In this document: piece after piece, positions 15,335 to 33,974 of the stretch
Layout: each line of letters begins with the position of its first letter
How positions within the stretch are numbered: position 1 is the first letter of the stretch
Origin: Clostridia bacterium
Lineage (GTDB): Bacteria; Bacillota; Clostridia; Oscillospirales; CAG-272
Reading direction: 5' to 3'
DNA: 64,000 nucleotides
Assembly: GCA_017625935.1 (NCBI GenBank)
Contig: JAGALA010000034.1
Coordinates: 18,593 to 82,592, forward strand
The notes under the pieces: model-generated
Told to the model about the DNA's origin: nothing
The model's database searches: none
What the model saw: the letters and a program-made list of their open reading frames with translations, nothing else
Position numbers and translations under genes: made by a program

Positions 15335-15620
15335 TAAAGCTCCTTTCACACTCACACGCGCACGTATAGCGCACGCGCGAGAAATTAAAAGCGCAAAAAT
15401 CGTGAAAAATTGCGCCTAATATAATTATAGATATAAATATAGTTATATATAGTATAACATAGGTGTGGAAAACTGTCAAGAAAATTTGAAAAATTTCTTC
15501 TTTATTATATATATTTTTCAACAGTACTCGTGGAAAAGGTTGAAAAATATTCATTTTTTGAATGAATTGTTCAGAAAAAATGAATAGAATTTCGTTCATA
15601 AATTGTGTATTTTGGTACAT
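15335..15620. other. oriC, upstream-of-dnaA part, plus the dnaA promoter region
   Basis: Box-like sites are tgtggaaaa (15464-15472), cgtggaaaa and tttttcaaca. The region is very AT-rich (ataattatagatataaatatagttatatatag). Confidence 0.65.
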
Positions 15621-15677
15621 TAAAAAAATAAAAAAAGAGCAAAATTTAACACTAATTTAACATTAAATTCTGCTCTT
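15621..15677 (-). terminator. Rho-independent terminator (minus strand)
   Basis: The stem is aagagcaaaattt / aaattctgctctt. On the minus strand it is followed by a long U-run (plus strand aaaaaaataaaaaaa). It lies downstream of the 15909-17192 gene and of the hairpin array. Confidence 0.7.
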
Positions 15678-15691
15678 ATTAGATTTTTGAC

Positions 15692-15900
15692 ACGCAATGC
15701 TTGCTCAAAATGACGAAGTAAATTCATGTCTAAAAGACAATTCATGTTGCACCGCAACAATTCATGGCAAAGTCAATTCATGCAACACGTTGCAATTCAT
15801 GTGCTTAGAGCACAATTTATGAAGCCCCGCTTCAATTTATGACGTTAGTCAATTCATGTTTCATATAAACAATTCATGACCGCAGGTCAATTCATTCAAC
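15692..15900. repeat. Mini-hairpin tandem array A (about 10 units, linker CAATTCATG / CAATTTATG)
   Basis: CAATT[C/T]ATG starts at 15738, 15758, 15774, 15793, 15813, 15833, 15850, 15870 and 15888, with aattcatg at 15721. The spacers are short palindromes, for example ttgcaccgcaa, caacacgttg, aagccccgctt, accgcaggt. Confidence 0.9.
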
Positions 15901-15908
15901 TCCGCTGA

Positions 15909-17192
15909 CTACTTTCCAAGCATAATTTTTATAATTTCCTTATCGGTTCCGCTCATTCCGACAGAGGCAAGGCGTCCGACGTTTTTGATTGTTTTTTCAA
16001 CGCCCTTTGTTACAATTCCCTCGCCTGAGTAGAATTGGTGGCCGCTTTTCGCCATCTCGTAGCCCATTATACCAGCTTCAACCGCCATTGAAATTTTAGC
16101 CGCGCACGAGGATTTTGCGCCGTCGCAAATAGTGCCCGATAAAATTGCAACCGCATTGACAAGAGTGTGTGAAATTTCGTAGTATCTGCCGCCGTGAAGA
16201 TAGCAAATGCCACAGCCCGCGCCAACACCTGCCGAAATAGCGCCGCAATATGCGGAAAGACAGCCGATGCCTGTTTTTTGGTGGATTGTAATTAAGTCTG
16301 AAACGATAAGTGCACGCAAAAGCTCCTCTTTTGTAGAGCCGAGCTTCTCGGCATATACGCAAAGCGGAACCGATGCGGTAATTCCCTGGTTGCCGCTGCC
16401 CGAAATTATACAAACGGGAAGCTCACAGCCGTTCATACGTGCGTCCGAGCCTGATGCCGCTAAGGCACGCGCCAAAACGCGCACGTCGTCACCCCTACTA
16501 AGATATAGTGTGCGGCCGATTGATGCGCCAAAATCGCCTGAAATTCCCTCTTTTGCTATTGCCATGTTGTATTCGATTTGCTTTTCCAAAATAGGTGAAA
16601 GCTCGTCAAGGTTGACAGTTTCTGCAAACTCTAAAATTTCCTCTACGTTAAGTGAGGAGCGGTCGGTTGCTTCCTTCTCAACAATATCGTCGGGAGACTG
16701 ATATCTTAGTGTTACGTCCTCTCCGTTTAAGCATGCCTCGACTAAATTTGTGTGGCGCTTAAGAAGATGCGCGCTTGCACTTTGACTGCCTAAAAAGCCC
16801 TCAATGTAAATTTCAAACGGGCTCGATGAATCAATTTCATATATTTCAATGCTTGCACTATTCTGAAAATCGCGTATTTTAGACACGTCCTCGGGTAAAA
16901 TTTCCGAAAGAACCTCTAATTTTTTGTGTGGGGACGCTGAAATAATACCTGCGCAAACGGCAGAATTAATACCGTGCATACCGCCTGTTTTTGGCACAAT
17001 AACGCTTTTTACGTTCTTTATTATGTTTCCGCTAAGTCCTATTTTTATCTCATTCGGATAAGCACCGAGCGCGTGAGAAATTATAGACGCGGCATACGCT
17101 ATCGCAATAGGCTCGGTACAGCCCATAGCGGGGATTAATTCCTCTTTCAGTATATTTGTATAGGCAGCTGCTTTTTCTTTTGTTAAAGCCAT
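15909..17192 (-). CDS. UPF0597 family protein (L-cysteine desulfidase / YhaM-like)
   Basis: The protein is 427 aa. The N-terminal MGCTEPIAIAYAA motif and the Gly/Ala-rich C-terminal half are typical of the serine-dehydratase-alpha-like UPF0597 family. Confidence 0.7.
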   Translation of the reverse strand: MALTKEKAAAYTNILKEELIPAMGCTEPIAIAYAASIISHALGAYPNEIKIGLSGNIIKNVKSVIVPKTGGMHGINSAVCAGIISASPHKKLEVLSEILPEDVSKIRDFQNSASIEIYEIDSSSPFEIYIEGFLGSQSASAHLLKRHTNLVEACLNGEDVTLRYQSPDDIVEKEATDRSSLNVEEILEFAETVNLDELSPILEKQIEYNMAIAKEGISGDFGASIGRTLYLSRGDDVRVLARALAASGSDARMNGCELPVCIISGSGNQGITASVPLCVYAEKLGSTKEELLRALIVSDLITIHQKTGIGCLSAYCGAISAGVGAGCGICYLHGGRYYEISHTLVNAVAILSGTICDGAKSSCAAKISMAVEAGIMGYEMAKSGHQFYSGEGIVTKGVEKTIKNVGRLASVGMSGTDKEIIKIMLGK

Positions 17193-17291
17193 ATTTTTTC
17201 CTTTTTAACCAGCTTTGTCAGTTGATTTTATAAATAATTTTTTGAAAAACAGACACAGGGTGCCTTTTTTTATAATTTTGGACAATAATTA

Positions 17292-18530
17292 TTAAATGTT
17301 CTTTCCGTCAACAGTTACGTTCTTAGCTCCGTCTGTATAAAGAAGATCGCCTGTTTTAAACGGTGCTTCAAAAATATCGGGCACGTTTGGCTGAATATCC
17401 ATTTTGCCGTAGTAATATGGATGCGTGTCGCCCTTTTCATACTTAAACGAGCAATTCTCTATCTTAACTCCGTCAAGGTTTTCTCCGTCACCGACAACTA
17501 TTGATGGGTTTTCCTCGACAAACGAGCAATTCTTGATTTCAATGTTTTTAATTTGACCCGTGGTATTCTTGGCGCAGATAACAAAGCCCTCGCCCTTTCC
17601 CCACCACCAGCCGGCGTGAATTTGAGTTTTAGCTCTTACGTTTTCAATTTTGATGTTTTCAACCACTCCGTTGTCGCCTGTAAAGATTGAAATTGCGCGG
17701 TTAGAGGGTAAAATTTCAATGTTTTTAATTGTCGCGTTTCTAACCTTGCTGTAAAGGTGACCGAAGCGAATTGCAGCCGAGCGCGAGGACATAAGACAGT
17801 TTGAAATTTCCATATTTTCGCACACTCCCTCGGTGTTTGTGATGCACGTTGCCGCAAAGCAATCGTCACCGCAGAGGAATGTTGAGTCACGCACAACGAT
17901 GTTTCTCGATGCTGAAAAATGAACGCCGTCATTGTTTGCAATACGGTTGTGGTTGTCAACGTAGCAGCGCTCAAAAACGATATTCTCACAGTTTGAGAAT
18001 GTAAAGGTCCAGCAAGGGGAGTTGAAAATTTGAAGGTCGTGAATATGTATATTTTTGCAGTTGTTAAAGAAAATAGGCTGAGTCGGACGAGCAATTTTTT
18101 CGTCAGGTCCGATAACCGTTTGCTCCTCATATTTCAGGGTCAAATTTTCATCGCGCATAAATTCGGGCGAGCCGCAGGTGAAGTTTGCAAACGCATCACC
18201 GCTTAAAATAATCTTACCTCCGCCGTACATTTCAATGTTGTCCGAGTCAAGCGCGTATATGAGCGAAATTGTCTTTACCATTTCGTTATGATAAAATTCA
18301 TTAACGTAGTAGTGATTTAAGTTACGTGAGCCGCAAAGCTCCGTACCCTTTTCAATATAAACCTTAATGTCGCCCTTTAATCTGAGTGTGCCCGAGAGAA
18401 AAATTCCCTTGCCGTCAAAAACAAGCGTATCGCCCGCCTCACACGCGTTAATTGCATTTTGAATAGCTACCGTGTCAAGCGTAGCACCGTCACCAATTGC
18501 ACCGAAATCTCTTACGTTTACGTTTTTCAT
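17292..18530 (-). CDS. Glycoside hydrolase family 28 (polygalacturonase-like, right-handed beta-helix)
   Basis: The N-terminus is VRDFGAIGDGATLDT. The GH28 catalytic motifs NNDGVHF, GDDCFA and RFGH are present. Confidence 0.8.
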   Translation of the reverse strand: MKNVNVRDFGAIGDGATLDTVAIQNAINACEAGDTLVFDGKGIFLSGTLRLKGDIKVYIEKGTELCGSRNLNHYYVNEFYHNEMVKTISLIYALDSDNIEMYGGGKIILSGDAFANFTCGSPEFMRDENLTLKYEEQTVIGPDEKIARPTQPIFFNNCKNIHIHDLQIFNSPCWTFTFSNCENIVFERCYVDNHNRIANNDGVHFSASRNIVVRDSTFLCGDDCFAATCITNTEGVCENMEISNCLMSSRSAAIRFGHLYSKVRNATIKNIEILPSNRAISIFTGDNGVVENIKIENVRAKTQIHAGWWWGKGEGFVICAKNTTGQIKNIEIKNCSFVEENPSIVVGDGENLDGVKIENCSFKYEKGDTHPYYYGKMDIQPNVPDIFEAPFKTGDLLYTDGAKNVTVDGKNI

Positions 18531-18555
18531 AATTATCTCCGTTAAATAAAATTTG

Positions 18556-19164
18556 TTAAATTAAATCTTCAGTTTTATATGATTTATAGCCCTCATAAAA
18601 ATAGCTGTTGTCAATGATCTTCATAAATATCTCGCGGTCATTTATCTTATCTGTCAATGCATTTTTGATTACGTGCTTAATTTCAATGTCGCGCACAGGG
18701 CTTCTTTCCATTGCCAAAAGGTAGTCCTCCTTGTCAACAAGAGACCAGTCAACAACGTAGCCAAGCTCCTTTTTGAGCATTAAATCAAGCCAAATGCGTG
18801 TGCTTCTGCCGTTACCCTCACGAAAAGGATGAGCAATGTTCATTTCAACGTATTTTTCAATGATTTCATCGAAGCTTGACTGCTTCATTTTGTCGATATT
18901 TTTCAATGATTCATTAAGATACATAAGCGGTGCAAAGCGAAAATTGCCTTTTGAAATATTCACCTTGCGAATTTCGCCTGCAAAACCGTAAATATCGCTA
19001 AAAAGATATTTGTGAATTTTAGACAAGGAGTCAAACGTGCCGCTTTCGAGCTTATCTAAAAAACCGCTTTCGTAAATCTCAAGCGCACGCTTTTTGGTTA
19101 TTTTTTCTTCAACATCTGCAAGCTCCGCCGAGCTTTCAATACCTAATTTATTTTCAAGCGCCAT
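18556..19164 (-). CDS. fic: Fic-family protein (adenylyltransferase type, class III-like)
   Basis: The Fic motif is HPFREGNGRSTR. The C-terminal SYFYEG matches the (S/T)xxxE(G/N) autoinhibitory motif. Confidence 0.85.
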   Translation of the reverse strand: MALENKLGIESSAELADVEEKITKKRALEIYESGFLDKLESGTFDSLSKIHKYLFSDIYGFAGEIRKVNISKGNFRFAPLMYLNESLKNIDKMKQSSFDEIIEKYVEMNIAHPFREGNGRSTRIWLDLMLKKELGYVVDWSLVDKEDYLLAMERSPVRDIEIKHVIKNALTDKINDREIFMKIIDNSYFYEGYKSYKTEDLI

Positions 19165-19261
19165 AATTTTGCCTCCCCATCACATAATTATCTAATTTAT
19201 ATTATATCATTAAATAATATAAAAAGCAAGAAAAAACCGAGGTAAAAGCCTCGGTATTAAA

Positions 19262-19657
19262 TTATTTATGTTTTTGATTTGGTATTTTATTCCCGTTTTC
19301 ATCAAAGTTTTTCTTTAACATTATTTCCGTTGGAATAACGGGTACTATCATAGGAATAAATTCTAAAAATGTTAAAACAAGTCCTACGTAACTGATAACC
19401 GTCGTACTTTCATTTATAAGAAATAACATCGGGATAGAAAAAATGGGTAAAGAAACTAAACCTAAAATAAGCCAAAGCTTGCCAAAAAGCTTGTGAGAAT
19501 ATTCCCACGTTTCCTTGCTTGCCATTGATTTTTCGGTTCTGTAACCCGAAAATGTATTAATATTTTTCGGCGGATTTTTAATATAAATTGCTCCAAAAAT
19601 AATCATAGAAAGTGGAATTAAAAGAACCATTATAAGCATATAAATCCAAAATCCCAT
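19262..19657 (-). CDS. SdpI/YhfL-family membrane protein
   Basis: The protein has 4 TM helices and the motif GYRTEKSMASKETWEYSHKLFGKLW. The start was chosen at the ATG at 19657 (MGFWIYM), which has an AGAGGTGA RBS. Confidence 0.65.
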   Translation of the reverse strand: MGFWIYMLIMVLLIPLSMIIFGAIYIKNPPKNINTFSGYRTEKSMASKETWEYSHKLFGKLWLILGLVSLPIFSIPMLFLINESTTVISYVGLVLTFLEFIPMIVPVIPTEIMLKKNFDENGNKIPNQKHK

Positions 19658-19786
19658 AAAATCACCTCTTAATGATATTATAATATATCTATTTACCAAA
19701 ATCAACATATTTATAAAATTGGTAAATAAAGAACACCTTTCTGCACAAGGCACGCCACAAGTGTTTCCATTGGTGAAATCATTATA

Positions 19787-20008
19787 TTATTTGTCAAGCT
19801 TTTTTGGCACATCAATAATTCCTGCCAAATAATCAAGTGAAACGTTATAAAACTGTGCGAGGATAATTGCACGGCTGAACGGAAGCTCTCTTTTTCCACT
19901 TTCATATGTGCTGTAATATTGATATGTCGTATTTAACACCTCTGCGACTTGTGCTTGTGTTAGGTCTCTGTCTTCTCTTAAATTTCTTAATCTTTTATTG
20001 TAGTTCAT
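19787..20008 (-). CDS. XRE-family helix-turn-helix regulator (cassette 1)
   Basis: The protein is 73 aa. The HTH_3-type core is LTQAQVAEVLNTTYQYYSTYESGKRELP. It is a paralog of the protein at 34000-34227. Confidence 0.85.
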   Translation of the reverse strand: MNYNKRLRNLREDRDLTQAQVAEVLNTTYQYYSTYESGKRELPFSRAIILAQFYNVSLDYLAGIIDVPKKLDK

Positions 20009-20150
20009 ATAATCACCTCATAAGAATATTACCACATATGATTAGTCAATAATTAAAAATTAATCACAAGTGATTAAAAAATACTTGACAAAAATGAAAA
20101 TGATATATATACTATTATTAATCATATATGGTTAAAAAGAGGTGAAAAAT

Positions 20151-20417
20151 ATGAAAAAAATTATTGAAAATCTATGGTACGGAAATATAGATCCGTGTGG
20201 TGATTATGTAAAAAATACAGATGAATTAAATGAGTTAAGAAAAAAACGTACTGATTTATACGAAAAGCTGTTAGCGGTATTAAATGAAAAAGAGAAAAAG
20301 CTACTTGATGAATACGAAGAATGTAATATCGAGATATTTGCAATACACGAAAAGGAATTATTTGAATATTCCTTTAGCTTAGGGTTTAACCTTGCAATAG
20401 AAATACTAACGAAATAA
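20151..20417 (+). CDS. Small helical protein partnered with the XRE regulator (cassette 1)
   Basis: The protein is 88 aa, starts with LWYGNIDP and is divergent from the XRE gene. The RBS is aagaggtga. It is a paralog of 34337-34606, with a shared ...E.EECxIE...F..G...A pattern. Confidence 0.65.
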   Translation: MKKIIENLWYGNIDPCGDYVKNTDELNELRKKRTDLYEKLLAVLNEKEKKLLDEYEECNIEIFAIHEKELFEYSFSLGFNLAIEILTK

Positions 20418-20421
20418 AAAG

Positions 20422-20455
20422 CCTTCCCCTTTGCTTGGAGGGGAAGGTGGATTTT
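20422..20455 (+). terminator. Stem-loop terminator
   Basis: The stem ccttcccct / aggggaagg is followed by a short T-rich tract. Confidence 0.55.
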
Positions 20456-20501
20456 ACGAAGTAAAAGACGGATGAGGTGTAGCCTTTATAAAAATGAATT
20501 T

Positions 20502-22379
20502 TTATTTACTCTGTAAGTATATGATTAAAACCGAAATATCGGCAGGGGAAACGCCCGAGATGCGTGATGCCTGACCGAGAGTTAATGGCTTTACCTTATT
20601 TAGCTTTTGCACCGCCTCAATACGAAGACCCTTGACAGTTGAATAGTCAAGGTCGGGGTCGAGTGGCTTTGACTCCATTTTTTCAGCCCTTGCAACCTCG
20701 TTTAATTGCTTCTTTACATAGCCGTCGTATTTTATGTCCGTTTGCGCGGTGAAAACAACGCTTTTTGGCAAATTAGCCCTACCTGTGTCTAAGTTTTCAA
20801 ACATAGAGAGGTCAAGCTGAGGCCTTTTTATAAGGTCGGCAAGTGAAATTGGCGTTGAAATCGGCGTTGTTCCCGATGCTTCAATTATCGAATTTACCTC
20901 GTCTGTTGGGTGAATTATAACCTTTGAAAGACGGTTCTTTTCGTCATTAATTTGGTTTCTGCGCTTTTCAAAATGCGCCCATTGACTGTCACTCACGAGT
21001 CCAACCTCTCGTCCTATGGGTGTTAGGCGAAGGTCGGCGTTGTCTTGGCGAAGGAGCAAGCGGTATTCACTGCGTGAGGTCATCATACGGTACGGCTCGT
21101 GCGTGCCCTTTGTAACAAGATCGTCAATTAGCGTGCCGATATAGGACGAGGAGCGCGGAAGAATCATTGGCTCACGTCCCTTTATTTTAAGTGCGGCGTT
21201 GATGCCTGCGACAAGTCCCTGTGCTGCCGCCTCCTCATAGCCCGAGGTGCCGTTAAACTGTCCTGCGCCGTAAAGACCCGAAATTTTCTTGTATTCGAGT
21301 GTGGCAAGCAGCTCCTGTGGGTCTGTGCAATCGTACTCAATTGCGTAGGCGTATCTCATTACCTTTGCGTTTTCAAAGCCCGAGAGAGAGTGAAGCATCT
21401 CCATTTGAACGTCAATTGGCATTGAGGTTGAAAAGCCCTGAAGGTACATTTCCTTAGTGTCAGCGCCCGTTGGCTCAAGGAACAGCTGGTGGCACTCCTT
21501 GTCTGCAAAGCGCACGATTTTGTCCTCAATTGATGGGCAATAGCGCGGACCTGTGCCGTGGATGTTTCCCGAGTACATCGCGCTTCTTTTTATGTTGTCC
21601 TTTATGATTTTGTGTGTTTCAAGGTTTGTGTATGCAATATAGCAGGGCACCTGCTCCTTTATCGGATAAGTGCTTTCATCAGTTTGCCAAGAAAATGGGA
21701 AGGAGCCAAGCTCTCCCTCTTGAATTTCAAGCTTGGAGTAGTCAATTGAATCTGCGTGGATTCTTGCAGGAGTGCCCGTTTTGAAGCGCATCATCGAAAT
21801 CCCCTCGCGAAGGAGCGCATCTGTCAAGAACGAAGCGTGCATAAGTGAATCGGGTCCTGAGTGATAGCAAATATCTCCCGTATGTACCGTTGCATTTAAG
21901 TAAGTTCCCGTGCATAAAATAGCCGCACGGCAAGAGTATTCCTCGCCGAGGCGTGTTACAACCTTGTCAATACGCTTATTTTCCCCCTCGCCCACGGTTT
22001 TTATATCGCAAATTTCCGCTTGAACGAGGCGAAGGTTTGGTGTGTTTTCCAAAACACCCTTCATAATAGAGCGGTATTTCAGTCTGTCGGCTTGAATTCT
22101 CTTTGAGTAAACCGCCGCACCCTTGCCAAGATTTAAGGTTCTTGCTTGCAGAGTAACCAAATCCGCGCTTTTTCCCATTTCACCGCCGAGAGCGTCAATT
22201 TCATAAACCAAATGGCCCTTGGCAGTGCCGCCAATCGACGGATTGCAGGGCAAATTAGCAACGGCATCGAGCGACATTGTAAATAAAACGGTGTTCAGTC
22301 CCATTCTCGCACATGCAAGCGCGGCTTCAATTCCCGCGTGGCCTGCGCCGACAACGGCAACGTCACAATAGTTTGACAT
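20502..22379 (-). CDS. mnmG: tRNA uridine 5-carboxymethylaminomethyl modification enzyme MnmG (GidA)
   Basis: The protein is 625 aa. The FAD-binding N-terminus is VVGAGHAGIEAA and the canonical GidA core is present. Confidence 0.95.
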   Translation of the reverse strand: MSNYCDVAVVGAGHAGIEAALACARMGLNTVLFTMSLDAVANLPCNPSIGGTAKGHLVYEIDALGGEMGKSADLVTLQARTLNLGKGAAVYSKRIQADRLKYRSIMKGVLENTPNLRLVQAEICDIKTVGEGENKRIDKVVTRLGEEYSCRAAILCTGTYLNATVHTGDICYHSGPDSLMHASFLTDALLREGISMMRFKTGTPARIHADSIDYSKLEIQEGELGSFPFSWQTDESTYPIKEQVPCYIAYTNLETHKIIKDNIKRSAMYSGNIHGTGPRYCPSIEDKIVRFADKECHQLFLEPTGADTKEMYLQGFSTSMPIDVQMEMLHSLSGFENAKVMRYAYAIEYDCTDPQELLATLEYKKISGLYGAGQFNGTSGYEEAAAQGLVAGINAALKIKGREPMILPRSSSYIGTLIDDLVTKGTHEPYRMMTSRSEYRLLLRQDNADLRLTPIGREVGLVSDSQWAHFEKRRNQINDEKNRLSKVIIHPTDEVNSIIEASGTTPISTPISLADLIKRPQLDLSMFENLDTGRANLPKSVVFTAQTDIKYDGYVKKQLNEVARAEKMESKPLDPDLDYSTVKGLRIEAVQKLNKVKPLTLGQASRISGVSPADISVLIIYLQSK

Positions 22380-22395
22380 AATTACTCCTTTCTAT

Positions 22396-22598
22396 GCACA
22401 ACTGCGTTGTGATTCCATACAGTAAAACACACTGATTCCATACCGCATTCGGACGGATTCCATACACGAATATGGCGTGATTACATACAACCTGCGGTTG
22501 ATTAAATGTTTACGCAAGTAAACAATTCATGTCAGGCACGCCTGACAATTCATGACAGCTATACTGTCAATTTATGATACCGTAGGTATCAATTCATT
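22396..22598. repeat. Mini-hairpin tandem array B (9 units, linkers GATTCCATAC to GATTAAATG to CAATTCATG)
   Basis: Linkers start at 22411, 22434, 22456, 22478, 22499, 22523, 22546, 22568 and 22590. Palindromic spacers include tttacgcaagtaaa, tcaggcacgcctga, acagctatactgt, ataccgtaggtat and aacctgcggtt. Confidence 0.9.
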
Positions 22599-23081
22599 TT
22601 ATTTATGATATTTCGTACCGTTTACAATAGAAAGTGAACGGTAGGCTGTTTCGTATAAAATAACGCGTAAAAGCTGATGCGGAAACGTGAGCTTAGATAC
22701 CGACAGCTTAAAGTCCGCCCTTTGCTTTACCGATGGGGCAAGCCCAAAGGATGATCCGATGATAAAGCAAATTTCGCTCTTTCCGAGCGTGGTTATTTCG
22801 TTTATTTTTGAGGCAAGCTCCTCGCTTGAAAGCTGCTTACCCTCAACGCACATAGCGATAACGTACGATTTATTTGAGATTTTCTCAAATATCGATTTAG
22901 CTTCCTTTTCAAGCGCTAAATCAATTTGGCTCTGGCTTGGATTTTCGGGCAGCTTTTCTTCCTTGAGTTCAATTTCCTCAACCCTTGCCCAAGCGCCGAG
23001 CCGCTTTTTATATTCGTCAGCCGCTGCGCGAAGATAGCCTTCCTTTAGGTTTCCTGTTGCAATAATTTTTATGTTTAGCAT
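22599..23081 (-). CDS. rlmH: 23S rRNA (pseudouridine1915-N3)-methyltransferase RlmH
   Basis: The protein is 160 aa with the SPOUT fold pattern (IGSSFGL...LSVSKLTFPHQL). Confidence 0.88.
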   Translation of the reverse strand: MLNIKIIATGNLKEGYLRAAADEYKKRLGAWARVEEIELKEEKLPENPSQSQIDLALEKEAKSIFEKISNKSYVIAMCVEGKQLSSEELASKINEITTLGKSEICFIIGSSFGLAPSVKQRADFKLSVSKLTFPHQLLRVILYETAYRSLSIVNGTKYHK

Positions 23082-23084
23082 TAT

Positions 23085-23135
23085 TCTTCAATCAATTTTT
23101 CAGCCGCCGATAAAATTGCCAATTTTCCGCTTTAA
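23085..23135 (-). pseudogene. Orphan duplicated 3' end of the PLP-enzyme gene (encodes SGKLAILSAAEKLIEE*)
   Basis: The minus-strand translation matches the C-terminus SGKIAILHAAENLIKE* of the 23190-24434 gene. Nucleotide identity is about 75%. The fragment's stop codon (23082-23084) abuts the rlmH ATG. Confidence 0.7.
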
Positions 23136-23189
23136 CCGGCTCCTTTGTGTAAAGGGAGCTGTCAGCTTTGCTGACTGAGGGATTGATTA

Positions 23190-24434
23190 TTACTCCTTAA
23201 TCAAATTTTCGGCAGCGTGTAAAATAGCAATTTTACCGCTTTCGTATGTGAGCGAGCCTTGGAAAAATGCGGTGTACGGTGGGCGCACAGGACCGTCACA
23301 GGAAAGCTCTATCGATGAGCCTTGAGTAAACGCGCCTGCCGCCATAATTACCTCATCCTGATAGCCCGGCATTGCCCAAGGCATTGGCGTTACGTATGAG
23401 TCAACAGGGCTTGCTGCCTGTATTCCCTGGCAGAATTTTATAAGCCCGTCAGCGTAGCCAAACTTAACGGTTTGGATAATGTCCGAGCGCATCTCACTGT
23501 ATTTTGGATAAACGTCAAAGCCGAGTGCTTCAAGCACGTATGCGGCAAAATGTGCAGTCTTTATTGCTTGCGCAACAACGTGAGGAGCTAAGAAAAAGCC
23601 CTTGAAAAGATTTCTGTTTTGACCCAAGGTTGCGCCAACCTCACAGCCTGTGCCAACTGAGGTAAGGCGGTATGAGGCAAGCTCAACTGCCCTTTTTGTT
23701 CCCGCAATATATCCGCCGCTTTCGGCAATTCCTCCACCCGGATTTTTTATAAGTGAGCCAATAATCATATCTGCGCCAACGTGTGTAGGCTCGCGCTCCT
23801 CGCAAAATTCGCCGTAGCAGTTGTCAACCACGACGTAAGCACCGCTTCTTTTGTGAACAAAATCGCAAATTTCGCCTATTTCGTCAATAGTCAAGGTCGG
23901 TCGGTTTAAGTAGCCCTTTGAGCGCTGAATGAACACAACCTTAACGCGCTCGCCGTACTCGTTCAGCTTTTCTTCAATTCCGTCAAAGTCGATTTTGTCG
24001 TTCTTAAAATTCACTTGGTCGTACTTTACGCCAAAGTCGGCAAGTGAGCCGTCACCGTTTGCACCGTTAAGGCCGATAACCTCGCAAAGAGTATCATACG
24101 GCTCGTTGGTAACGGAAAGAAGGACGTCATTTGGACGGAGCAAGCCGAAAAGACCTATCGTTAAAGCGGTTGTGCCGTTTGGAATTGTATGGCGCACAAA
24201 CGCTGCCTCAGCACCGAAAACGTCAGCGTAAACCTTGTCGAGCGTATCTCTGCCGATATCGTCGTAGCCATAGCCCGTAGTACCGGAAAACATACTGTCG
24301 CTGACTCTATGCTCACGGAAAAATTCAAGCACGCGCGCGGTGTTTTTATATGATGTTTCGTCTATTTTTTTATAAATATCGCTAAGCGCGGCCTCTGCCT
24401 CACTTGCAATTTTAAGAAGTCTTTCTGAAATCAT
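23190..24434 (-). CDS. PLP-dependent enzyme, aluminium-resistance / YnbB (Cys/Met-metabolism lyase-like) family
   Basis: The protein is 414 aa. The N-terminus ...FSGTTGYGYDDIGRDTLD... is typical of this family. The RBS is aaggag. Confidence 0.65.
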   Translation of the reverse strand: MISERLLKIASEAEAALSDIYKKIDETSYKNTARVLEFFREHRVSDSMFSGTTGYGYDDIGRDTLDKVYADVFGAEAAFVRHTIPNGTTALTIGLFGLLRPNDVLLSVTNEPYDTLCEVIGLNGANGDGSLADFGVKYDQVNFKNDKIDFDGIEEKLNEYGERVKVVFIQRSKGYLNRPTLTIDEIGEICDFVHKRSGAYVVVDNCYGEFCEEREPTHVGADMIIGSLIKNPGGGIAESGGYIAGTKRAVELASYRLTSVGTGCEVGATLGQNRNLFKGFFLAPHVVAQAIKTAHFAAYVLEALGFDVYPKYSEMRSDIIQTVKFGYADGLIKFCQGIQAASPVDSYVTPMPWAMPGYQDEVIMAAGAFTQGSSIELSCDGPVRPPYTAFFQGSLTYESGKIAILHAAENLIKE

Positions 24435-24496
24435 AAATTCTCCTTATTTAGCAAACACAGGTCAAGGTTTTTGCCCTGCCTGTGTCTGTTTTTCTA

Positions 24497-26317
24497 TTAT
24501 TTTAACTTTGCGTATGCCTTAAGTCTTAACTGAGTATTAAGAATTTTCTTTCTTAAGCGGAGCGACTTTGGAGTAACCTCAATAAGCTCGTCCTCTGCAA
24601 TATACTCAATTGCCTGCTCAAGTGACATTTGTCTTGGCGGAGTTAAGATGAGCGCCTCGTCCGCACCCTTTGAACGAATAGCGGTTAAGTGCTTTTTCTT
24701 ACATACGTTGACAACGATATCCTCCATTTTCGGACATTCGCCAACAATCATTCCCTCATAAACGGGAGTTTGAACGCCAATGAACATAGCACCTCTGTCC
24801 TGTGTATTGAAAAGACCGTATGAGGTTGCCTCTCCGTCCTCGGAAGCAATAAGCGAGCCTGTAAATCTTGTGATAACGTCGCCCTTGAAAGGCTGATAGC
24901 CGTCAAATAAGGTGTTTAAGATACCCTCGCCCTTGGTGTCTGTCATAAATTCACTTCTGTAGCCGAACAGACATCTTGACGGAATTAAATATTCAAGACG
25001 CGTTCTTGTGCCTGCCTTGTTCATTTCAAGCAGCTCGCCCTTACGTGAGCCAAGCTTTTGAACAACCGCGCCAACGCTTTCGTCAGGCACGTCAATTGAA
25101 ACTCTTTCCATCGGCTCGTGTAAAGTGCCGTCGATTGTTTTATAAAGCACACGCGGAGTTGAGCAGCAAAGCTCGTAGCCCTCACGGCGCATAGTTTCGA
25201 TAAGAATTGATAAGTGCATTTCGCCTCTGCCCGCAACCTTAAAGGAGTCGGTTGTGTCGCCATCCGTTACGCGGAGGGAAACGTCCTTAAGTGTTTCCTT
25301 GTAAAGGCGGTCACGGATTTGACGGGAGGTAACAAACTTGCCCTCCTTGCCTGCAAACGGGCTGTCGTTTACGCTGAAGGTCATTTCCATTGTCGGCTCT
25401 GAAACCTTAACGAATTCAAGCGGCTCAGGGTTGTTAACCGAGCAAATTGTATCACCTATTGAAAGCTCCTCAACGCCCGAGAAGCAAACGATATCGCCGA
25501 CCGTTGCTGTTTGTGCGGGCTGACGTGAAAGACCCTCAAACTGATAGATTGAAACAATCTTTGCACGTCTTGGGGCTGCATCGGAGTGATAGTTGCAAAC
25601 GGAAACCTCGCCGTTTACCTTAAGAGTACCGCGCTCAATTCTACCGATACCTATCTTACCAACGTACTCGTTATAGTCGATTGCAGAAACGAGAAGCTGT
25701 AAATCCTCATCCTCCTCGCCCTCGGGCTCGGGGATATAGTCGATAATTGTATCGAGAAGCGGCTTTAAGTCAGTGCCGGGAACGTCGGGTGAGAATGAGG
25801 CTGTGCCTGCTCTGCCCGAGCAGAAAAGCATTGGTGAGTCAAGCTGCTCATCAGTTGCGTTAAGGTCGATTAGAAGCTCCAAAACCTCGTCGATAACCTC
25901 GTGCACACGTGCATCGGGGCGGTCGATTTTGTTAACGACAACTATTATTCTGTGGTTAAGCTCCATTGCCTTGCGAAGCACGAAGCGTGTTTGAGGCATC
26001 GGACCCTCTGCCGCGTCAACGAGCAAAATAACGCCGTTAACCATCTTAAGGATTCTTTCAACCTCACCGCCAAAGTCCGCGTGGCCGGGGGTGTCGATTA
26101 TGTTTATTTTCTTATCGCCGTAGCGAATAGCTGTATTTTTTGCCAAGATTGTAATGCCGCGCTCCTTTTCGAGTGCGTTTGAGTCCATTACACGGTCGGT
26201 AGTGGATTGATTTTCGTGGTATGCGCCGCCCTGCTCCAAAAGTCCGTCAACGAGTGTTGTTTTACCGTGGTCAACGTGGGCAATGATTGCAACGTTTCTT
26301 AAATCTTCTCTAAGCAT
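24497..26317 (-). CDS. typA: Translational GTPase TypA/BipA
   Basis: The G1 motif is AHVDHGKTT, the G3 motif is DTPGHADF and the G4 motif is NKID. The protein is 606 aa. Confidence 0.95.
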
Positions 26318-26436
26318 TTCATCCGTCCTTTTTTATATTGAAAAATTTAGCGTGCCTATTATAGCACACATTTTTCTAAAATAAAAGACTTTTTTATAAA
26401 AAAATTAAATTTTCATAAAATCAACACAAAAGCATA

Positions 26437-26545
26437 CTCACTGAGGGTGAGATTCCATACAGAACAAAGTACTGATTCCATTCACGGTGAACCGTAATTC
26501 CATACACATAAATGTGTGATTCCATACAACCTTCGGTTGATTTAG
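26437..26545. repeat. Mini-hairpin tandem array C (5 units, linker [G/A]ATTCCAT[A/T]C)
   Basis: Linkers start at 26451, 26474, 26496, 26518 and 26538 (degenerate). Spacers are tcactgagggtga, acggtgaaccgt, acataaatgtgt and aaccttcggtt. Confidence 0.85.
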
Positions 26546-26547
26546 CC

Positions 26548-26633
26548 GTAGGGTAAGATATTATCTTCCCGCGTATCAAGCAGATGTTAATTAAATCGCA
26601 TTCGCGTTTGTAGGGGAGGGGCTTGCTCCTCCC
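26548..26633 (+). repeat. Two GTAGGG-plus-hairpin REP-like elements
   Basis: The two elements are gtagggtaagatattatcttccc (26548-26570) and gtaggggaggggcttgctcctccc (26610-26633). Confidence 0.7.
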
Positions 26634-26713
26634 GCCTTTCGGATTAAGTCCTGACCTTGTCAGGATGAAGTCGCTTCGCGGTTATATTACCTTCCCTTAC
26701 AAAATCAAAAGGT

Positions 26714-26750
26714 TGATAAAAATCCCTCCTTGAAATACCAAAGAGGGATT
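26714..26750 (-). terminator. Rho-independent terminator (minus strand)
   Basis: The stem is aatccctc / gagggatt. On the minus strand it is followed by TTTTTAT. Confidence 0.65.
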
Positions 26751-26756
26751 GAATTA

Positions 26757-27716
26757 TTATTTTACAGGTTCAAAAACAACGGATTTTACTACGTCTAAGT
26801 AGATTTTTCCATCTTCGCTTGGAGATACGCGTTTTGTGTTTTCGTTTTCGTCATAAACCAAAATATCTGAGTCACTTTCAATTAAAATAGTGAGGGGAGT
26901 GTCTAAAATTGCACTTGGCGTGTCGCTGTTTACGAGAATTTCCGCCTTTAATTTTCCGTCCTGCTCACTCACTTGAAGCGTGCTGTTTTCGTATTTTCTA
27001 AGATATGAGGCAACCTCGTCAAACGAGCCCGTCCAAATTTTACCGCCGCGTGCGCGCTCGGCAAGATAATCACATTCCACCTTAAACTGCTCCGCATTTT
27101 GTGAGTGGAAAACGTCCTCGTCCTTGTGGGTGATCCAGTGGTTCATTTGGACGCCCCAGCCACCCTCACTTATTGTTTTGTCAATATAATCGGTATAGTA
27201 TTTCAAGTCCTTTGCAAGCATAGCGGTTAAGCAGTTTACGTCAAGCCAATTGATTTTTCCGGGCTGGTTTACACCGTCTCCACCCGCACGGCAAGCAATA
27301 TAATGCTCGGCAAGTAGGGCTGTTCCCTCCTCGTCACGCGCGCCGCCTGCAAAAATAAAGGTGTTTACCTCCTCGCCCGGGAACATCTCGCGCAGCTTTG
27401 CTTGAGCACCCTCGGCGTCCGCCTTTCTTCTCTCATACGGAGTTGAGGAGCAAAACGCAATATCGTGTCCAATAGTGTGTGAGGCAATATCAAAATAGTT
27501 AGCTTCGATAGCCTCGCGCCACATATTAATTAAGCGCTCGTGCATAAAAGCAACGGTAATTCCAACGGTTGCTTTAATCTTAACGCCCGTTTTTTCGTAC
27601 ACGTCCTCAAACTTTTCGATTACCTCGCGCGTTGAATCATAGTAGCAGCCGTCGTCAAAGGTAAAGGAAAACGCACAGCCTGCACCGCCCTTGTATTTGC
27701 AAATTTCAATATTCAT
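26757..27716 (-). CDS. Polysaccharide deacetylase (NodB/CE4-like)
   Basis: The NodB-type motifs FTFDDG and SHTIGH are present. The start was chosen at MNIEICKYK (ATG at 27716). Confidence 0.7.
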   Translation of the reverse strand: MNIEICKYKGGAGCAFSFTFDDGCYYDSTREVIEKFEDVYEKTGVKIKATVGITVAFMHERLINMWREAIEANYFDIASHTIGHDIAFCSSTPYERRKADAEGAQAKLREMFPGEEVNTFIFAGGARDEEGTALLAEHYIACRAGGDGVNQPGKINWLDVNCLTAMLAKDLKYYTDYIDKTISEGGWGVQMNHWITHKDEDVFHSQNAEQFKVECDYLAERARGGKIWTGSFDEVASYLRKYENSTLQVSEQDGKLKAEILVNSDTPSAILDTPLTILIESDSDILVYDENENTKRVSPSEDGKIYLDVVKSVVFEPVK

Positions 27717-27790
27717 AAATTTGTCCTCACAAAAAATATTTATTAAAATAATTATATCACACGCACGTAAGATATTCAATATTATAAAAT

Positions 27791-27820
27791 AAAAAAGCAC
27801 CGAAAATCGGTGCTTTCTTT
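27791..27820. terminator. Bidirectional terminator
   Basis: The sequence is aaaaaa-gcaccga-aaa-tcggtgc-tttcttt. Confidence 0.7.
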
Positions 27821-33461: not shown

Positions 33462-33974
33462 ATGGAAAGAAACGAATTACCCAAAAGAAAACCGATAAGG
33501 TTAAATAATTTTCATTACGGTGCGGGATATGCATATTTTATCACCGTATGCACGAAGGATAGAGCGAAAATTTTATCAAAAATAACCGTAGGGGACGGCG
33601 CCCTCGACGTCCCGAAAACAGAATTAACAAAATGCGGTGAAATTGTTGAGAAATATATTTTATCTACAAATAAAATAAATAATGTATGTGTTGACAGATA
33701 TGTAATTATGCCGAATCATTTTCATATGATTATTAGGATTGAGGGAGATTCAAATGATTTGGAAAACGGGACGTCGAGGGCGCCGTCCCCTACAAACAAA
33801 ACAATTCCGCATATTGTTTCAACCTTGAAAAGATTCTGCAATAAAGAAATAGGGGAAAACATCTTCCAACGCTCATTCTACGACCACGTGATACGCGGAC
33901 GCGAGGACTACGAGGAGATATCAAGGTATATTTACGAAAACCCACTAAATTGGAAAAATGATGAATTATACTAA
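33462..33974 (+). CDS. REP-associated tyrosine transposase (RAYT; IS200/IS605 Y1-HUH TnpA-like)
   Basis: The HUH motif is MPNHFHMII. The C-terminal catalytic Tyr region is YDHVIRGREDYEEISRYIYENPLNW. The protein is 170 aa. Confidence 0.8.
   Translation: MERNELPKRKPIRLNNFHYGAGYAYFITVCTKDRAKILSKITVGDGALDVPKTELTKCGEIVEKYILSTNKINNVCVDRYVIMPNHFHMIIRIEGDSNDLENGTSRAPSPTNKTIPHIVSTLKRFCNKEIGENIFQRSFYDHVIRGREDYEEISRYIYENPLNWKNDELY
33588..33614 (+). repeat. REP-like element inside the RAYT ORF (left arm; translated as VGDGALDVP)
   Basis: gtaggggacggcgccctcgacgtcccg is the perfect reverse complement of 33767-33793. Confidence 0.9.
33767..33793 (-). repeat. REP-like element inside the RAYT ORF (right arm; translated as GTSRAPSPT)
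   Basis: cgggacgtcgagggcgccgtcccctac forms a 27/27 inverted repeat with 33588-33614. Confidence 0.9.

Follow-up and report, generated by a model that had tools for sequence, protein, structure and literature searches.

A hairpin-linker array joined to GTAGGG REPs in a Clostridia genome, probably one diverged copy of a BIME-like mosaic repeat of the host species

REPs and BIME mosaics are known mainly from Proteobacteria. GTAG-tagged REPs and their RAYTs form a known system (PMC3733652, PMC2817692, PMC3116915), the BIMEs of Enterobacteria combine REPs with other short conserved motifs (PMC2817692), and REPINs are inverted REP doublets that are mobilised by RAYTs and form one long hairpin (PMC3116915, PMC3337134). 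The Gut-1 RNA motif (Rfam RF01706; Weinberg et al. 2010, PMC2864571) consists of short hairpins with a conserved GAUGAUAU-type linker between them; membership in that class is taken here to require a multi-hairpin core inside a closing stem and expression as a small RNA. Here we describe a Clostridia locus at which an array of short hairpins runs directly into two GTAGGG REPs.

The host assembly comprises 2.08 Mb in 61 contigs (43.5% GC), and the window, by which we mean the whole stretch of 64,000 nucleotides that was analysed, lies on contig C29. The spacer under study has on one side a typA/BipA gene (Pfam; 24497-26317) and on the other a CE4-like gene (26757-27800), both of which lie on the minus strand. 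On the plus strand of the spacer the order is five short units (26437-26547), REP1, an interval of 38 nt, and REP2; in genome coordinates, the array lies at C29:45044-45118 and the junction at G000:C29:45128-45145 (G000 being the host genome). The features are as follows.

26393-26421, plus strand: sigma-70-like promoter match TTTATA-17-TAAAAT, a weak consensus match in AT-rich DNA
26437-26451, plus strand: mini-hairpin 1, CTCACtgaggGTGAG, a 5-pair stem in the sequence
26451-26460, plus strand: linker 1, GATTCCATAC, from the linker word search
26461-26473, plus strand: spacer 2, AGAACAAAGTACT, a degenerate unit that closes with about 3 pairs
26474-26483, plus strand: linker 2, GATTCCATTC, from the linker word search
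26484-26495, plus strand: mini-hairpin 3, ACGGtgaaCCGT, from the sequence and the spacer-pairing test
26496-26505, plus strand: linker 3, AATTCCATAC, from the linker word search
26504-26517, plus strand: mini-hairpin 4, ACACATaaATGTGT, from the sequence and folding
26518-26527, plus strand: linker 4, GATTCCATAC, from the linker word search
26528-26538, plus strand: mini-hairpin 5, AACCttcGGTT, the family's commonest hairpin word, from the sequence and the genome array listing
26539-26547, plus strand: degenerate terminal linker GATTTAGCC, the array side of the recurrent junction of GTTGATTWANNN with GTAGGG
26548-26571, plus strand: REP1, GTAGGGTAAGATATTATCTTCCCG, a diverged GTAG-headed REP (12.2 bits, E 0.88, with covariance model R1, which was built from a REP subtype other than REP2's and used for both REP scores)
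26597-26609, plus strand: small hairpin CGCattcGCG plus TTT directly before REP2, from the sequence
26610-26634, plus strand: REP2, GTAGGGGAGGGGCTTGCTCCTCCCG (19.1 bits, E 0.024, model R1)
26714-26750 (approximate), minus strand: terminator-like hairpin and U-run behind the CE4-like gene, from alignments
33462-33974, plus strand: RAYT-like HUH/Y1 gene, with an HFH (HUH) motif and a Tyr, and with REPs inside the gene at 33588 and 33767-33793

The sequence-only reading had counted five units in the array. The array is real, but it has four full linkers (GATTCCATAC at 26451 and 26518, GATTCCATTC at 26474, AATTCCATAC at 26496) and a degenerate fifth, GATTTAGCC, at a period of 22-23 nt, and all five of its inter-linker segments form clean hairpins except the weak one at 26461-26473. 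Allowing up to one mismatch, GATTCCATAC has 11 matches in the window against 3.2 expected, a number reached in none of 100 shuffles, and these cluster at the array and at 22411-22488. With self-complementary spacers and the linkers above, the array belongs to the hairpin-linker (A/B linker) family, which we define by at least three same-strand GRTKMYATRC linkers, a period of 17-31 nt and self-complementary spacers. A CRISPR-like array was rejected because the repeats are 10 nt long and the spacers are 12-13 nt and self-complementary.

That two REPs directly abut the array, as had also been claimed, was confirmed. We take REPs to be imperfect palindromes of 20-40 nt whose 5' end carries a conserved GTAG head, and both elements belong to this class: they are GTAGGG-headed, they fold, they have many copies, and a cognate RAYT is present in the genome. 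REP1 is a diverged member of the GAGGATATTATCCTCCC subtype, with one compensatory pair change, one mismatch and no T-run, and REP2 is letter for letter the most abundant REP subtype (26 copies). Judged by its sequence, the CGCattcGCG hairpin before REP2 looks like what is left of AACGCnnnGCGTT, the hairpin with which arrays usually end. Behind REP2, at 26640-26700, the small hairpins GTCCTGACcttGTCAGGAT and GTCGCttcGCGGT occur with GAA/GAT-type words between them, which may be a further degenerate array.

The linker-sense strand of the array is antisense to both flanking genes, and the array lies upstream of the region that must contain the typA promoter. Hence it does not serve either gene as a 3' UTR or as a 5' leader, and the earlier remark that such arrays are not always found in a 3' UTR holds true here. 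The same reading had placed it downstream of a CE4 gene terminator. A terminator-like hairpin does appear there in the alignments, but the CE4-like gene matches no Pfam family at E up to 0.001; its TFDDG and HTIGH motifs are the sole family clue and suggest a polysaccharide deacetylase fold. The candidate promoter at 26393-26421, a weak match, would begin a plus-strand transcript a few bases ahead of the array, and the plus strand folds better than its shuffles (z = -2.8) whereas the minus strand does not (z = -0.7). For such a putative transcript, the REP could serve as a terminator or 3' stabiliser. A CsrA-type GGA sponge on the minus strand was dropped because the GATGATATAC linker contains no GGA and the minus strand folds no better than shuffles.

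We compared the locus with the four described systems. As in BIMEs, RAYT-type REPs form a mosaic with a second short conserved module, the whole being extragenic, multi-copy, modular and variable in unit number, and clusters in the host read Array-REP-X-REP. The non-REP module, however, is itself a structured array with private hairpins and a constant linker, where BIMEs have a simple motif such as L or S. At the locus, the REPs are direct and 62 nt apart instead of alternating (other host clusters mix both orientations), and the host mosaic occurs in one species among 151 sampled. The locus is mosaic-like but not a BIME in the strict sense, which calls for alternating, regularly spaced REPs with conserved motifs between them. 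Like the GTAG-tagged REPs of the REP/RAYT system, the two elements at 26548 and 26610 combine a GTAG(GG) head with an imperfect, GC-rich palindrome whose stem positions covary, and the RAYT-like genes carry cognate REPs; in contrast to that literature, which is mainly on Proteobacteria (PMC3733652, PMC2817692, PMC3116915), the host is a low-GC member of the Clostridia, its RAYT family falls under the Pfam Y1_Tnp cut-off (19.6 bits for the gene at 33462-33974 versus 23), and its REPs are fused to arrays. The resemblance to REPINs lies in a candidate non-autonomous unit of putative mobility that exceeds one REP in length, has defined boundaries and was amplified in a single lineage, but this unit is not made of two inverted REPs: its second arm is replaced by an array of unrelated mini-hairpins. 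At the locus itself, the REPs are direct and of different subtypes and do not form a REPIN. The architecture of Gut-1 is common to the whole array family, and arrays of relatives match its model in linker sense, directly before a terminator; they reach 25-30 bits, however, against a gathering score of 50, and the array at 26437-26547 differs further in having a ATTCCATA linker and no closing stem. The Gut-1 model gave no match at the gathering score, and none at E up to 10 in 26300-26760 or at E up to 1 in 15500-27000, and an Rfam search of the locus returned chance-level matches alone.

The array-REP junction is precise, orientation-specific and far beyond chance in the host genome. Twelve of the 25 strict A/B arrays have a same-strand REP that starts 5-45 nt past the last full linker, compared with one array with a 3' REP on the opposite strand, one with a 5' REP on the same strand and none with a 5' REP on the opposite strand, and when REPs were placed at random in the 212 kb of intergenic DNA, the count averaged 0.185 over 2000 trials and never exceeded 4. 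Sites of the form GATTnA(n2-4)GTAGGG number 26, 24 of which are preceded by A/B-type arrays or array remnants, and the 18-nt junction GTTGATTWANNNGTAGGG has 22 exact sites in the genome, the locus at 26437-26634 among them. None of the 40 AATTCAT-type (C) arrays has such a same-strand 3' REP; three have any REP nearby, in no fixed register and at chance level. The junction joins at least five REP subtypes to array interiors of either linker type (A or B). Full-length copies share a 5' terminus, (A/T)ATGC-AACCTNCGGTT, and a last hairpin, AACGCnnnGCGTT, and 5'-truncated copies occur too. In clusters, the order is Array-REP-X, with ACGCACCCAACAA as X, and then a reverse REP or the next array. Many junction copies lie at contig ends, and segmental duplication is visible in the copies C22:8110 and C22:10398, which have their downstream flank in common. 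The copy at 26437 has no canonical 5' terminus, its hairpins are private, and its REP1 is degenerate and without a T-run, so it possibly represents an independent or older fusion; the locus at 26437-26634 may therefore not be a copy of the amplified unit. Taken together, we consider it probable that the two repeat classes form one lineage-specific mosaic repeat, a new variant of the REP mosaic.

Three linker classes were found in the host genome, namely A (GATTCCATAC and variants), B (GATGATATAC) and C (AATTCAT), and shuffled genomes contained no hairpin-linker arrays. Among 44 distinct inter-linker spacers, 61% close with at least 5 pairs compared with 0.5% after shuffling, which makes the hairpins a genuine property of the family. 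Counted with a detector that uses one linker pattern, so that arrays with other linkers fall outside the counts, the host has 69 two-linker and 35 three-linker matches, and its congeners G031 and G120 have 23 and 8, and 17 and 5, respectively; the host exceeds its congeners by roughly as many arrays as are joined to a REP. In the rlmH-mnmG spacer of the window (22396-22598), a sister array begins with a degenerate canonical 5' terminus (ATGCAC-AACtgcGTTG), changes from ATTCCATAC linkers to AATTCAT linkers and has no REP; at about this site, the congeners carry a B-type array. Two further host arrays, in the mutS-mutL spacer (C5:8746-8905) and in a release-factor-like operon (C20:4097-4196), are intercistronic and sense-oriented, the latter lying between a stop codon and the next ribosome-binding site, with flanks ATACC...GGTAT.

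REPs with a GTAGGG head and a hairpin number about 140-157 in the 2.08 Mb of the host, in about nine subtypes, and the genome encodes three full RAYT-like paralogues, the gene at 33462-33974 among them, and a fragment. In the 27-nt REP class, pairing holds in 99% of cells, and double changes were seen at 3 pairs, in 22 cells versus 4 in shuffles. Among the strict REPs, 62% are followed by at least three T within 6 nt, and 55 of 77 are co-oriented with the upstream gene. We detected no replication-strand bias of REPs (34 vs 34) or arrays (9 vs 10 on the GC-skew strand), compared with 802 vs 226 for genes, which leaves targeting of the lagging-strand template without support.

On balance, we favour the reading that the locus is one diverged copy of a species-specific, BIME-like array-REP mosaic that has been amplified in the host species. 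The first module of this mosaic would be four or five short, GC-closed hairpins whose sequence is arbitrary; between them would lie a constant single-stranded linker of 8-10 nt that is rich in AU, here GATTCCATAC, of which GATGATATAC would be an interchangeable variant. The second would be at least one GTAGGG REP, a putative RAYT substrate, fused to the 3' end of the array through a degenerate last linker, GATT(T/A)ANNN. We propose that the arrays belong to an older, independent, Gut-1-like class that co-occurs with PF05635 genes and not with RAYT. In relatives, such arrays run in sense direction directly ahead of an intrinsic terminator, very often the bidirectional one behind a tRNA gene. 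In the host, the REP, a GC hairpin usually followed by a T-run, would take the slot of that terminator hairpin, probably through one event or a small number of them. This fused unit, ending in (A/T)ATGC-AACCTNCGGTT at its 5' side and in the REP at its 3' side, may then have been copied to about 20 places, with modules shuffled between copies. It could have been amplified through recombination between identical 10-nt linkers and through segmental duplication, perhaps also with RAYT acting at the REP end; copying by recombination or duplication, with or without RAYT, is what we infer.

Arrays of relatives were surveyed at loci L012-L039 of seven genomes (G031, G120, G017, G039, G048, G072 and G107). 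At 14 of 20 loci, B-type arrays form inverted pairs directly behind tRNA genes together with a bidirectional terminator, and each arm, in linker-sense orientation, runs into that terminator. Array ends in relatives and in five viral contigs read GAT(T/A)-A/T run-hairpin-T run; the viral contigs came from an IMG/VR scan for three GATGATATRC linkers, which returned mostly plain tandem repeats and five contigs with true arrays plus terminator. In the inverted pairs, half of the terminal hairpin (CATTGCGAAAGCAATG or CAAGCCGCAGGCTTG) is repeated at the pair's centre. From locus to locus, this half-copy changes along with the terminal hairpin, a pattern suggestive of a closing stem or of an alternative pairing.

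Arrays turn over quickly, being gained and lost between congeners. Two clean empty sites were found in the congeners, both for REP-free arrays, and the mutS-mutL and release-factor-like operon arrays are absent from both congeners. For the REP-joined composites, no empty site was recovered and the flanks are non-syntenic in G031 and G120; the typA-upstream region of these two genomes, in which synteny differs, has neither array nor REPs. At the tRNA-Gly/Arg/His cluster, the host array (C55:21991-22047) is A-type (ATTCCAT linker) and the orthologous L022 of G120 is B-type (GATGATAT). The hairpins of these two arrays are unrelated, and the linker type has been replaced as a whole at the orthologous site.

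We further examined 151 genomes of one family, the host included. Matches were found to the RAYT protein family in 63 genomes, to REP model R1 (E up to 1) in 74, to two A/B linkers around a spacer in 38 and to PF05635 in 82; REP counts at the top of the range stand for at least 50 per genome. The junction is restricted to the host lineage. Across the 150 other family genomes, the junction word GTTGATTWANNNGTAGGG had one chance-level match (G004), and a scan of species-representative genomes gave, among the matches listed, single matches in unrelated taxa. The mosaic would offer a recent, single-lineage Clostridia case in which a REP was fused at a fixed position to an independently evolving structured repeat and then multiplied. 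The congeners, which have arrays, lack RAYT and carry 0-1 REP, provide a natural experiment on how REP systems recruit neighbouring sequence, and the same contrast may help to find out whether a REP can replace an intrinsic terminator.

The alternative that survives best, which we nevertheless regard as rather doubtful, is that RAYT-driven REPs integrate preferentially just 3' of a terminal array hairpin plus GATTTANNN, perhaps because the array end in single-stranded DNA mimics a REP target, so that many junctions would be independent insertions. Several observations point this way: one 9-mer junction (e.g., GATTTATCC or GATTTACCC) precedes clearly different REP subtypes (CGGGGGCTTGTCTCCCGCC, GGCGACGTCCTCGACGCCCC), the GATTTA... 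end linker is native to REP-free arrays in the host mutS-mutL spacer (GATTTACTACGTA) and in relatives, and the copy at 26437 has private hairpins yet an identical junction. However, the junction is missing from all 63 RAYT-positive genomes except the host. We also found no REPs within 73 kb around the arrays of eight relatives, including the array-bearing and REP-rich G107 (at least 38 REPs) and G017 (11), in the loci covered. Which hairpin comes last goes partly with the REP subtype, an indication that fused units were copied, as the mosaic reading has it.

A further possibility, which we judge improbable, is that the composite is a non-autonomous mobile element, for which RAYT would treat the REP as one of the two ends and let a mini-hairpin of the array stand in for the other. 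If true, this would account for the defined 5' terminus ATGC-AACCTNCGGTT, for the 5'-truncated copies and for the three- to seven-fold excess of arrays, and it would mean that REP/RAYT had captured as cargo an unrelated Gut-1-like repeat that is normally linked to PF05635.

The sequence-only reading had taken the side-by-side placement as a possible sign of a mechanism shared by both repeats, such as the RAYT at 33462, or else as coincidental accumulation in a permissive region. The placement is indeed meaningful, given the same-strand 3' REPs of 12 in 25 arrays against 0.19 at random, but mobilisation or maintenance of both arrays and REPs by RAYT is very unlikely. What speaks for it is that both elements consist of a single-stranded head and a hairpin, and that the two are physically fused and co-amplified in the host. 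In Fisher tests on raw presence/absence, which take the MAGs as they stand and ignore kinship and MAG incompleteness, the positive control of RAYT versus REP across the 151 genomes gave an odds ratio of 31 (P = 5e-17), showing that the co-occurrence test has power. In the co-occurrence check, the association between arrays (at least 2 matches) and RAYT was weak (odds ratio = 2.5, P = 0.04, uncorrected for phylogeny) and disappeared in array-rich genomes (at least 5 or at least 10 matches; odds ratio = 0.8-0.9, P = 1). By comparison, arrays were associated with PF05635 (odds ratio = 7.5, P = 6e-5), and all eight genomes with at least 10 array matches were PF05635-positive. The RAYT family and PF05635 also co-occur (odds ratio = 4.5, P = 3e-5), which could explain the weak association between arrays and RAYT.

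The arrays are independent of RAYT, and their association with REPs, real as it is in the host genome, is secondary. The expectation that genomes lacking RAYT would also lack arrays failed in seven array carriers (G031, G120, G058, G072, G048, G076 and G135), which have 6-65 array matches and 0-8 REPs but no relative of the host RAYT and no Pfam Y1 transposase. Among them, the congeners G031 and G120 have 23 and 17 array matches with 0 and 1 REP, respectively, and G058 has 65 array matches, the second-largest load, and no REP. Conversely, 45 RAYT-positive genomes have fewer than two array matches, and the AATTCAT-type arrays of the host are never REP-joined. These orphan Gut-1-like arrays are thereby constrained: no HUH enzyme is needed for them, congeners differ through their gain and loss, and their occurrence follows that of PF05635 genes. 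In G058, contig ends (C1:1-362, C2:43786-44126, C4, C12, C25 and C38) carry arrays of at least 16 units with near-identical hairpins; these long arrays break the assembly, and the genome carries four PF05635 genes.

Least credible of all is a mere pile-up of unrelated arrays and REPs in permissive spacers, which would fit the preference of both elements for gene 3' ends and intergenic DNA and the chance-level REPs near three of 40 AATTCAT-type arrays, but which is rejected genome-wide, though not formally for the single locus 26437-26634, by the fixed offset and strand in 12 of 25 arrays (0.19 expected, maximum 4 in 2000 permutations) and by a junction that occurs 22 times in the host and essentially nowhere else in 150 relatives.

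Some minor observations concern the window and the REPs. The cumulative GC skew in the window has its minimum near 38-42 kb. A putative dnaA-dnaN-recF-gyrB-gyrA-like block, recognised by ORF order and sizes, occupies 6.5-15.4 kb of the window, and from this block to about 41 kb every gene is on the minus strand. Several host REPs (C31:17684, C37:471, C37:712 and C52:15098) have in their loop a palindromic insert of about 48 nt (gtgtccgagaaccccc...ggggaaccccgtg), which looks like a small element nested within the REP.
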